The position numbers and the translations under genes are program-made. A model generated the notes under the pieces. The model saw only the letters and a list, made by a program, of their open reading frames with translations. It was not told the DNA's origin and did not search any database. A stretch of DNA of 64,000 nucleotides. Source: Escherichia coli. GTDB lineage: Bacteria; Pseudomonadota; Gammaproteobacteria; Enterobacterales; Enterobacteriaceae. The stretch lies in NCBI RefSeq assembly GCF_013315695.1, contig NZ_CP054353.1. One strand, written 5' to 3'. This document shows, piece by piece, positions 123-2,105 of the stretch (position 1 is its first letter; each line of letters begins with the position of its first letter).

Positions 123-548
123 TTACTCACTTTTCAGCGCATTCACTTCTTCTCGTAATTCACTGAGTTCGTTCATTAGTACCAGAATCGCTTCATGATG
201 CAACGCTGCCGCAACGCCGTAAGTATCTGGAGAGAGTACTCCTTCCACCATAGTTCCATCAGGAAGTTGACGATCACCTCCCTCAGTTACTGCCTGGGGG
301 AAGATTTTCTTAACATCCTGCGCGATAAACCCAATCCCCCATTGTCCGGTATCTTTTCGCGTCCAGGAACAACCTTTTAGCATTTCCATCTTACTGAGCG
401 GGTCTCCAATTCTGGACACTCCATCTTTCAGGCGGCCATCTGAATTCGGAACCCATGCTCCAGGCGCTACAGCGTTACCAGTTGATTTCATAAAGCTCCA
501 TGTGGTTCCTGAGCTTGCGTTTGCTACCTGAATATTCCCTGATAAAGA
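123..548 (-). pseudogene. 3' fragment of a phage tail-fibre/tailspike gene (C-terminal intramolecular chaperone domain); 5' part replaced by IS
   Basis: ORF 123..599(-) translation carries NSDGRLKDGV...GIGFIAQDVKKIFPQAV...LMNELSELREEVNALK, matching the conserved C-terminal auto-processing chaperone domain of tail fibres. The first ~17 codons of the listed ORF lie inside the IS inverted repeat, so the true 5' end is missing. Confidence 0.55.
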
Positions 549-1475
<927 letters not shown>

Positions 1476-1602
1476 ATCGGTAGAAAAAAGAAACTTTACC
1501 AGCCTGACTGATCCTTGCGTTCAGCCCATGAGAATCTGAAATGGTTTCGATATCATCTCGTTTCTTGCCCAGGGACTTCCTGAGCTTTGTGTCGGTAATC
1601 AT
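1476..1602 (-). pseudogene. 5' fragment (~42 codons) of a P4-like tyrosine integrase gene, truncated by the IS
   Basis: Minus-strand translation from the ATG at 1602: [43 protein letters not shown], matching the N-terminal arm-binding motif of P4/CP4-57-type integrases (LTDxxIR...DGxGL...G.K.W.FRY). The reading frame then enters the IS right end. Confidence 0.45.
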
Positions 1603-2105
1603 TGAATGTGTACACATCTGGCTTGCGAGTACGCAAAAGTGTACACAAAACTCGTTGCTCAAAGATACCCGCAATGTAACACTTGTACTCGAAGTGTGAT
1701 GGCTTAGGGGCTGAAAGGCAGATGGCGTAAGGGTTCAACGTAACAGAACGTTTTTATGCGAAATTCTTCGAAATGGTCTGAATGACATTTTAAGAAAGTG
1801 TTCTGAATAGAAATTCAATATTTAAGGGCACGGTTTTTGCAACCGTGTTCTTGTTTGGCCTTTCCTTATAGGTCGGTCAGTGCATTCACCACCACAAGCA
1901 GATAATAACTTTATCTGTATTTCTTTATATGATGTGAACATATTCAGGAAAATGCCCTTTCCTGACGCAGAGTTGCTCACTCAAAACCTTTGATTACTGC
2001 GGATAAAGTCATCTACTATTGTTTAACACATTCACGCGCTGCATGTATGTTCAGAAAATGTGCACGTTGAGATAATTAAACAAAATTGTGGTTACAGAGG
2101 TATCA

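Follow-up and report, generated by a model that had tools for sequence, protein, structure and literature searches.

The window, i.e., the whole 64 kb stretch of E. coli DNA analysed here, begins within a decayed prophage that lies between yciI and kch, and this locus is what remains of a phage-phi80-like prophage, integrated where phi80 itself attaches, i.e., in the 3' end of yciI upstream of kch. The host junction is placed at ~1789, given that core-genome homology begins there. The sequence rightwards from this position, which comprises the yciI 3' end and the region upstream of kch, is matched in 5,421 of 5,426 complete E. coli genomes, and the matches in non-lysogen genomes carry the yciI annotation, while the sequence to the left of it is present in only 202 complete E. 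coli genomes. In the laboratory strain CM5, the same yciI/kch site is occupied by a lambdoid prophage that is intact, and its arm and int 5' end share 87% DNA identity with the window, its integrase of 397 aa being 100% identical to phi80 Int (X04051).

Given that the prophage remnant occupies the phi80 attachment site, the segment at 1603..1787 (minus strand), which aligns with phi80 attP and with the CM5 prophage from the int start to the core, is the integrase-proximal (P'-type) arm of a phi80-type attachment site, and now forms the prophage-host junction. The attachment-site core, TTTTAAGAAAGTGTTCT, is found at 1788..1804, where 16 of its 17 bases match the annotated phi80 core (JX871397), and it overlaps the displaced original 3' end of yciI on the plus strand (1789..1806), which reads TTT AAG AAA GTG TTC TGA, i.e., FKKVF-stop. 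A second copy of the core is present in the yciI 3' end on the yciI side of the remnant, in the genome of the window's strain (L002). The phi80 genome record JX871397 annotates a 17-bp attP core, IHF and a “possible” int promoter, pI, and in this record int is transcribed away from the core.

An alignment of eight arms of the phi80 clade reveals conserved islands in the core-proximal part of the arm (1739..1773, minus strand), which consist of TTTCGAAGAATTTC (1773-1760), with two TTYCG units 10 bp apart, and AAAAACG..GTTACG (1755-1739). Accessory proteins, for instance excisionase or IHF, might bind at these blocks. The block GTGTTACAT (1674..1682, minus strand), which is listed among the direct repeats as D4 and is repeated as TGTTACGT at 1745-1738, is also invariant in this alignment. 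All three blocks are of a non-GTGTAC type and differ in the clade with 44-52% Int identity. The middle of the arm, which is poorly conserved, also contains an 18-nt direct repeat (GATGGCTTAGGGGCTGAA / GATGGCGTAAGGGTTCAA, 1698-1738, copies 23 bp apart) that is common to phi80 only in part.

The integrase itself is reduced to its first 43 codons (1474..1602, minus strand), which cover a portion of the arm-DNA-binding domain at the N-terminus of a tyrosine integrase of the phi80 type. A tblastn comparison of this fragment with phi80 Int returned 78% identity (E 3e-21) over 54 aa, an alignment that extends beyond the 43 int codons into the end of the neighboring insertion sequence, and the match of the fragment to PF13356 (E 7e-5) reached 23.3 bits, under the 27-bit Pfam gathering cut-off. 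Full-length phi80 Int matches the same family, the Arm-DNA-bind_3 N-terminal domain, with an E of 1e-18, and this domain of phi80 Int has solved structural homologues (3JTZ, 3JU0). In an identical locus, RefSeq labels the fragment as an “Arm DNA-binding domain-containing protein” pseudogene.

The reading frame is interrupted after codon 43 by an IS3-family insertion sequence (549..1475, plus strand) that is bounded by terminal inverted repeats of 28 nt (549-576 and 1448-1475) and whose ORF at 587-1465 is annotated as “IS3 family transposase” in the identical RefSeq locus. In this single ORF of 292 aa, the DDE transposase part is preceded by a fused N-terminus of the OrfA-like helix-turn-helix type, and such a fusion suggests an internally deleted or fused copy of the insertion sequence, which also adjoins a fragment of a tail-fibre gene (123-599, minus strand). 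No further match to a phi80-type Int was found anywhere in the 64 kb window, and what stands beside the att arm is an int of 43 codons, with xis lost. Given that Int is cut after codon 43 by the insertion sequence and that xis is gone, the recombination system is dead in the window, and the sites described below are a functionless relic in this genome.

The integrase start codon (ATG at 1602-1600, minus strand) lies 4 nt away from the first of two palindromes, TGTGTACACA at 1607-1616, and the second, GTGTACAC, is found at 1639-1646. Only two copies of the motif GTGTACAC are present in the whole window of 64 kb (1608-1615 and 1639-1646), and the centres of the palindromes (1611.5 and 1642.5) are 31 bp apart. 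A degenerate middle copy lies between them, with GAGTACGCA on the plus strand (1627-1635), which is TGCGTACTC in the int sense. The three copies, all of which are read on the minus strand, make up an array formed by the site P'1 (1638..1647; TGTGTACACT in the int sense, which includes the second palindrome), the site P'2 (1626..1635; TGCGTACTCG in the int sense, the degenerate copy, which starts 12 bp past the start of P'1) and the site P'3 (1607..1616; the first palindrome, which starts 19 bp past the start of P'2). Together, the sites occupy the last 45 bp preceding the int start codon, and their consensus is about WTGYGTAYNY. Dinucleotide shuffles of the window contained a mean of 0.57 copies of GTGTACAC, and at least three same-strand GYGTAC motifs within 45 bp arose in one of 200 Markov simulations.

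A previous reading of the letters without database searches (the sequence-only reading) had described palindromes at 1607..1616 and 1639..1646, directly upstream of the truncated integrase ATG on its coding strand, and both the coordinates and the position are borne out here. Its distance of 32 bp from centre to centre is corrected to 31 bp, and its description as a pair of repeats holds for the two copies, which are real, but falls short of the actual unit, a three-site array with a conserved middle copy that had been missed.

The array is not peculiar to this remnant. A scan of one genome per species provided 14 enterobacterial loci with integrases 44-87% identical, from Kluyvera, Citrobacter, Pluralibacter, Enterobacter, Ewingella, E. 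albertii, Buttiauxella, Klebsiella, Salmonella and Hafnia, and all 14 carry the array GTGTACAC-N4-GYGTAY-N9-16-GTGTAC, two of them as single-base variants, with its end 4-8 bp ahead of the int start. The array was also found in phi80, a Klebsiella phage and Stx2a phages, and it thus stands upstream of int in phi80 and in relatives with 44-100% identical integrases from at least nine enterobacterial genera. The proximal arm of phi80, in the int sense, reads TTTGTGTACAC-TTTTGTGTACCC-N11-ATGTGTACCC-ATTCA-ATG, i.e., three copies, whose starts are spaced by 12 and 20 bp and of which the first alone is palindromic. The corresponding sites are GTGTACAC / GCGTACTT / GTGTACTC in the Klebsiella phage (Int 77% identical) and GTGTACAC / GTGTATAC / GTGTACAC in the Stx2a phages (Int 52% identical).

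The individual sites differ in the manner in which they are kept. The site P'1 is invariant in the eight aligned arms of the phi80 clade, where it falls within TTTGTGTACACTTTTG, which, followed by GTAC, makes up the longest run of invariant arm sequence across these eight lineages (P'1-P'2), and it is also present in the clade with 44-52% identity, with single-base variants in two lineages (L096 and L097). The position of P'2 is kept as TG(C/T)GTA(C/T)NN in all the relatives, and P'3 is kept as ATGTGTAC-N-CA in the eight-arm alignment of the phi80 clade, with last bases that vary across the relatives (CC, TC, TT, CT or AC). A stretch of ~55 bp in the arm, which separates the sites from the core-proximal blocks, is without conservation in the same alignment.

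A reverse search of IMG/VR with the array pattern given above led back to the integrase, given that 71 of the 80 array loci analysed directly precede a phi80-type integrase in the same orientation, and the remaining nine loci form three unrelated groups. Most of the IMG/VR relatives start exactly at the int start, and those with flanks, being prophages, gave access to the proximal arm alone. Three IMG/VR contigs from unrelated phages (L118, L180 and L181) contain five copies of GTGTACAC in an intergenic region of ~200 bp with no phi80-type integrase downstream of the cluster, which may be another element that uses the same motif. Another contig (L184) encodes a distant P4-like integrase, 26% identical to phi80 Int, with four GTGTAC-type repeats (GTGTACAC, GTGTACCC, GTGTACAT and GGGTACAC) 55 bp upstream of the int start, and the motif may thus be in wider use among the P4-like integrases.

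Copies of the motif are also found in the opposite (distal) arm, at 80-100 bp from the core in the relatives, the sites of the proximal arm being 141-197 bp away from it. The distal copy TGTGTACTT is shared by phi80, the window's strain and the Klebsiella phage, in the same orientation as the proximal sites, and in phi80 it lies 89 bp across the core, within the phage-derived terminator hairpin that follows yciI. In the phi80 clade, the distal arm has this one clear copy, followed 12 bp on by a weak second one (GTGCCC / GCGCCC / GTGTCC). For the clade with 44-52% identity, the distal arm was read from the lysogen E. coli ML35, and the Stx2a record LC727874 ends short of the att arm. The ML35 prophage, with an Int 52% identical, a sapB/sapC junction, the core TATCGTAAGGCAT and a different phage backbone, carries two tandem copies of TGTGTATATA in this arm, 12 bp apart and ~97 bp from the core, again in the same orientation. 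When the IHF consensus was searched for, the distal arm of phi80 gave two perfect sites, and its proximal arm gave none.

Two further observations concern the insertion sites. The distal GTGTAC copy lies within a terminator-like hairpin directly behind yciI at two loci outside the window (L002, 1655-1710; L004, 1390-1425), and the phage also brings replacement last codons for yciI. Given that the phage supplies both the last codons and the hairpin, yciI is left intact and terminated after the integration. At sapB/sapC, on the other hand, a lambdoid family with the core TATCGTAAGGCAT is found that includes Stx2a-converting phages (L187/L188, from E. coli ML35; L006, LC727874), and this type of prophage is carried by six complete E. 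coli genomes.

Taken on these comparisons, the palindromes are probably two of the three arm-type integrase-binding sites on the proximal side of a phi80-type attachment site. They and their counterparts fall inside the attP footprint of ~300 bp and away from the crossover core, in the att arms, and they form several copies, on both arms, of a short consensus unlike that of the core. The cognate integrase has a separate N-terminal arm-binding domain, as represented by phi80 Int and PF13356, and the motif follows the integrase regardless of the core, be it that of yciI or that of sapB/sapC, and of the phage backbone.

The integrase domains have diverged unequally, given that phi80 Int and the sapB/sapC-type Int are 71% identical in the N-terminal domain, 49% in the core-binding region and 46% in the catalytic region, and that the most conserved peptide patterns, picked for the locus search, both fall in the N-terminal domain. 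As this domain is the most conserved and the cores differ, the motif tracks the most conserved DNA-binding module of the protein while the core specificity has changed. A conserved N-terminal domain and arm motif alongside diverged catalytic domains and cores is what the arm-type model would predict, and the presence of copies on both arms, together with the conservation of the N-terminal domain, favors arm-type sites over either an excisionase site or the operator of a dimeric repressor.

The sequence-only reading had suggested an operator or a recombination-directionality site of the former mobile element. The assignment to that element is upheld, given that the sites belong to its recombination module, in the att arm upstream of int, but the arm sites of Int are favored here over the excisionase site or the operator. 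The same reading had proposed a motif search upstream of related integrases, and had named as its refutation a background frequency of the motif without enrichment near integrase genes; the enrichment observed, in the genomic relatives and the IMG/VR loci alike, is strongly positive.

We infer from the sequence comparisons both the identity of the binding protein and its effect on its own gene. In the intact phage, the N-terminal domain of Int (Arm-DNA-bind_3) would dock on P'1-P'3 and on the one or two distal copies, while its C-terminal domains would hold the core of 17 bp in the yciI 3' end. Int with IHF, plus Xis for the excision, would then bridge the arms to the core, which would give rise to the recombination complex. 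Probably, Int bound at these sites would also repress its own gene, as is the case for KplE1 IntS and P4 Int. Such autorepression is proposed because the sites fill the last stretch before the int start, including a proposed -10 element, given that the hexamer TACACT within P'1 is marked in the phi80 record (JX871397) as the -10 of a promoter, “possible pI”. This step is, however, weakly founded, because a sigma-70 consensus scan of 1400-2150 returned no match on the int strand. A manual inspection of the -10-like hexamers, i.e., TACACT in P'1 and TAAAAT, CATAAT and TATAAT 5' of P'1 in the clade with 44-52% identity, found no convincing -35 element.

Several points count against the reading as arm sites. 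Xis is conserved along with Int, so that the covariation may also accommodate Xis, and the 8-bp palindromic core of the motif makes the orientation of the sites ambiguous. In addition, P'1 and P'3 are inverted repeats in the clade with 44-52% identity, and the phi80 clade has a single clear copy in its distal arm. The repeats might, in fact, be the binding sites of the phage excisionase, an AlpA/Xis-like directionality factor that bends the arm in excision and represses int, although this is unlikely. In phi80, in the Klebsiella phage and in the phages of the Stx2a/ML35 type, int faces a homologous Xis gene in convergent orientation, and Xis is a component of this module everywhere. Copies of GTGTAC on both arms fit poorly, given that excisionase sites are normally restricted to one arm, as in lambda. 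The Xis proteins of the phi80 and sapB/sapC types are, furthermore, 50% identical between clades with a near-identical motif, against 71% for the N-terminal domain of Int, and the core-proximal conserved blocks, which differ between the clades, are a better fit to a more diverged protein such as Xis. In favor of an excisionase, TorI, the directionality factor of KplE1, binds the int-proximal arm and represses intS (PMC2951348).

The palindromy of the sites raises a different question, which concerns the RNA. In the phi80 clade, palindromy is kept at P'1 only, with P'3 being GTGTACCC, GTGTACTC, GTGTACTT or GTGTACCT almost throughout, and the window departs from this rule, its P'3 being a perfect palindrome. 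In the clade with 44-52% identity, by contrast, P'1 and P'3 are inverted repeats of 10-12 bp, rather than direct ones (TGTGTACACT ... AGTGTACACA). It is conceivable, but quite unlikely, that P'1 and P'3, which as copies of a single palindrome are inverted repeats of each other, pair in the leader RNA of int, in a hairpin that would mask the first bases of the start codon as well as the spacer separating this codon from the ribosome-binding site, limiting translation. In the clade with 44-52% identity, the perfect inverted repeat formed by P'1, P'3 and their flanks is accompanied by a GGAG ribosome-binding site just 5' of P'3 and by a TTG/ATG start that overlaps the stem, the ML35 leader folds with -22.9 kcal/mol (z = -5.4), and two lineages (L097 and L187) have G-U-compatible changes.

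Other observations count against the hairpin. The proposed phi80 -10 lies inside P'1, which may thus escape transcription, the fold of the window is not significant (z = -1.35), and that of phi80 pairs differently. In the phi80 clade, the variants of P'3 disrupt one and the same pair with no compensating change, two mismatches in L096 are likewise uncompensated, and the P'2 and distal-arm copies are left unexplained. In more general terms, the palindromes of P'1 and P'3 might have been selected beyond the docking of Int, either because a leader hairpin occludes the start or because the N-terminal domain of Int binds in either orientation, which is a model that we regard as improbable. If the hairpin were real, a single DNA element would act as a recombination arm site and as a translational throttle on the integrase.

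Dyad symmetry also speaks for an operator, in which the palindromes would be bound by a dimeric repressor, either the phage immunity repressor or a host transcription factor, that controls int. The symmetry is perfect in sites of 8-10 bp, which are located about three helical turns (31 bp) apart at the int 5' end, and the P'1 palindrome is invariant in nearly all the relatives. Palindromy is lost, however, at P'2, at the P'3 of the phi80 clade and in the distal copies, and abutting half-sites of 4-5 bp are atypical for helix-turn-helix dimers. The motif also follows int across unrelated immunity and early regions, the phi80/CM5 and ML35 prophages having no annotated repressor or neighboring early product in common, and across many host genera and integration sites. 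Neither a conserved dyad symmetry nor a link to one repressor was thus found, and the operator of a host factor or immunity repressor, which is very improbable, was rejected, given that the motif goes with int whatever the host, the insertion site or the immunity type. Finally, a functionless chance occurrence of the pair, for which the motif is short enough that at least two copies appeared somewhere in the window in 8 of 100 shuffles, has a negligible probability and is already refuted by the tests of conservation and specificity, given that a pair within 40 bp arose in none of the 200 Markov simulations, that the array is kept at one position down to 44% Int identity with diverging flanks, and that its loci in IMG/VR so consistently precede phi80-type integrases.

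The array is, then, an ordinary feature of phi80-like phages, an element of a textbook kind in an attP whose sequence has long been public. The GenBank record of phi80 has no Int arm sites annotated, and among the papers searched, none maps the arm sites of phi80 Int or links GTGTACAC to a phage integrase. For the genome of the window, there is little consequence, given that the sites are a fossil left by a phi80-like prophage where phi80 classically integrates, and the identity of the locus accounts for them. The comparison nevertheless yields a candidate arm-type recognition sequence (WTGYGTAY, five sites) for the integrase of phi80 and its enterobacterial relatives, which also covers the integrase of the Stx2a phages that insert at sapB/sapC. 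The CRIM integration vectors make wide use of phi80 Int/attP, and the phage itself is a frequent contaminant in laboratories. Knowledge of the arm sites would aid the design of a minimal attP and the annotation of prophage ends.

The closest known system is that of phi80 itself (attP/int-xis; X04051, JX871397), which integrates at the same site, the yciI 3' end near tonB-trp, and has the same arm organization. The three GTGTAC sites follow the same order, with a spacing of 12/20 bp in phi80 and 12/19 bp in the window, and the Int N-terminus is orthologous. The DNA of the window is about 87% identical to that of phi80, and differs in its P'3, which is GTGTACAC where phi80 has GTGTACCC, the P'2 of the window being GCGTACTC. 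Unlike in phi80, the Int of the window is truncated at codon 43 by the insertion sequence, xis is lost and the other parts of the prophage have decayed.

In lambda, the arm-type sites of Int are P1 and P2 on one arm and P'1, P'2 and P'3 on the other, and the arms are bridged to the core. As in lambda, the sites described here are short non-core repeats on both arms, three of them int-proximal and one or two distal, and they are presumed to be bound by the small N-terminal domain of a heterobivalent tyrosine integrase. The consensus, WTGYGTAY, is unlike that of lambda (C/AAGTCACTAT), as is the spacing of 12 and 19-20 bp, and the N-terminal domain comes from another Pfam family (Arm-DNA-bind_3, P4-like). 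In addition, int is transcribed away from the core, so that the sites lie at its 5' end rather than at its 3' end, and the phi80-type sites are, unlike those of lambda, predicted from sequence.

This last arrangement recalls KplE1 (CPS-53) IntS and P4 Int, in which the arm-type sites overlap the int promoter in attL and underlie negative autoregulation (PMC2951348). For the phi80-type int, such autorepression would be an operator-like side effect that is plausible by analogy. The phi80-type site also differs from them in its insertion in the 3' end of a protein-coding gene, rather than a tRNA gene, and in its motif. As in KplE1 IntS/TorI and P4 Int/Vis, however, int points away from the att core, so that the region upstream of the gene is the recombination arm, the putative arm-type sites are found where the promoter and leader must be, and the integrase has a P4-like N-terminal domain.
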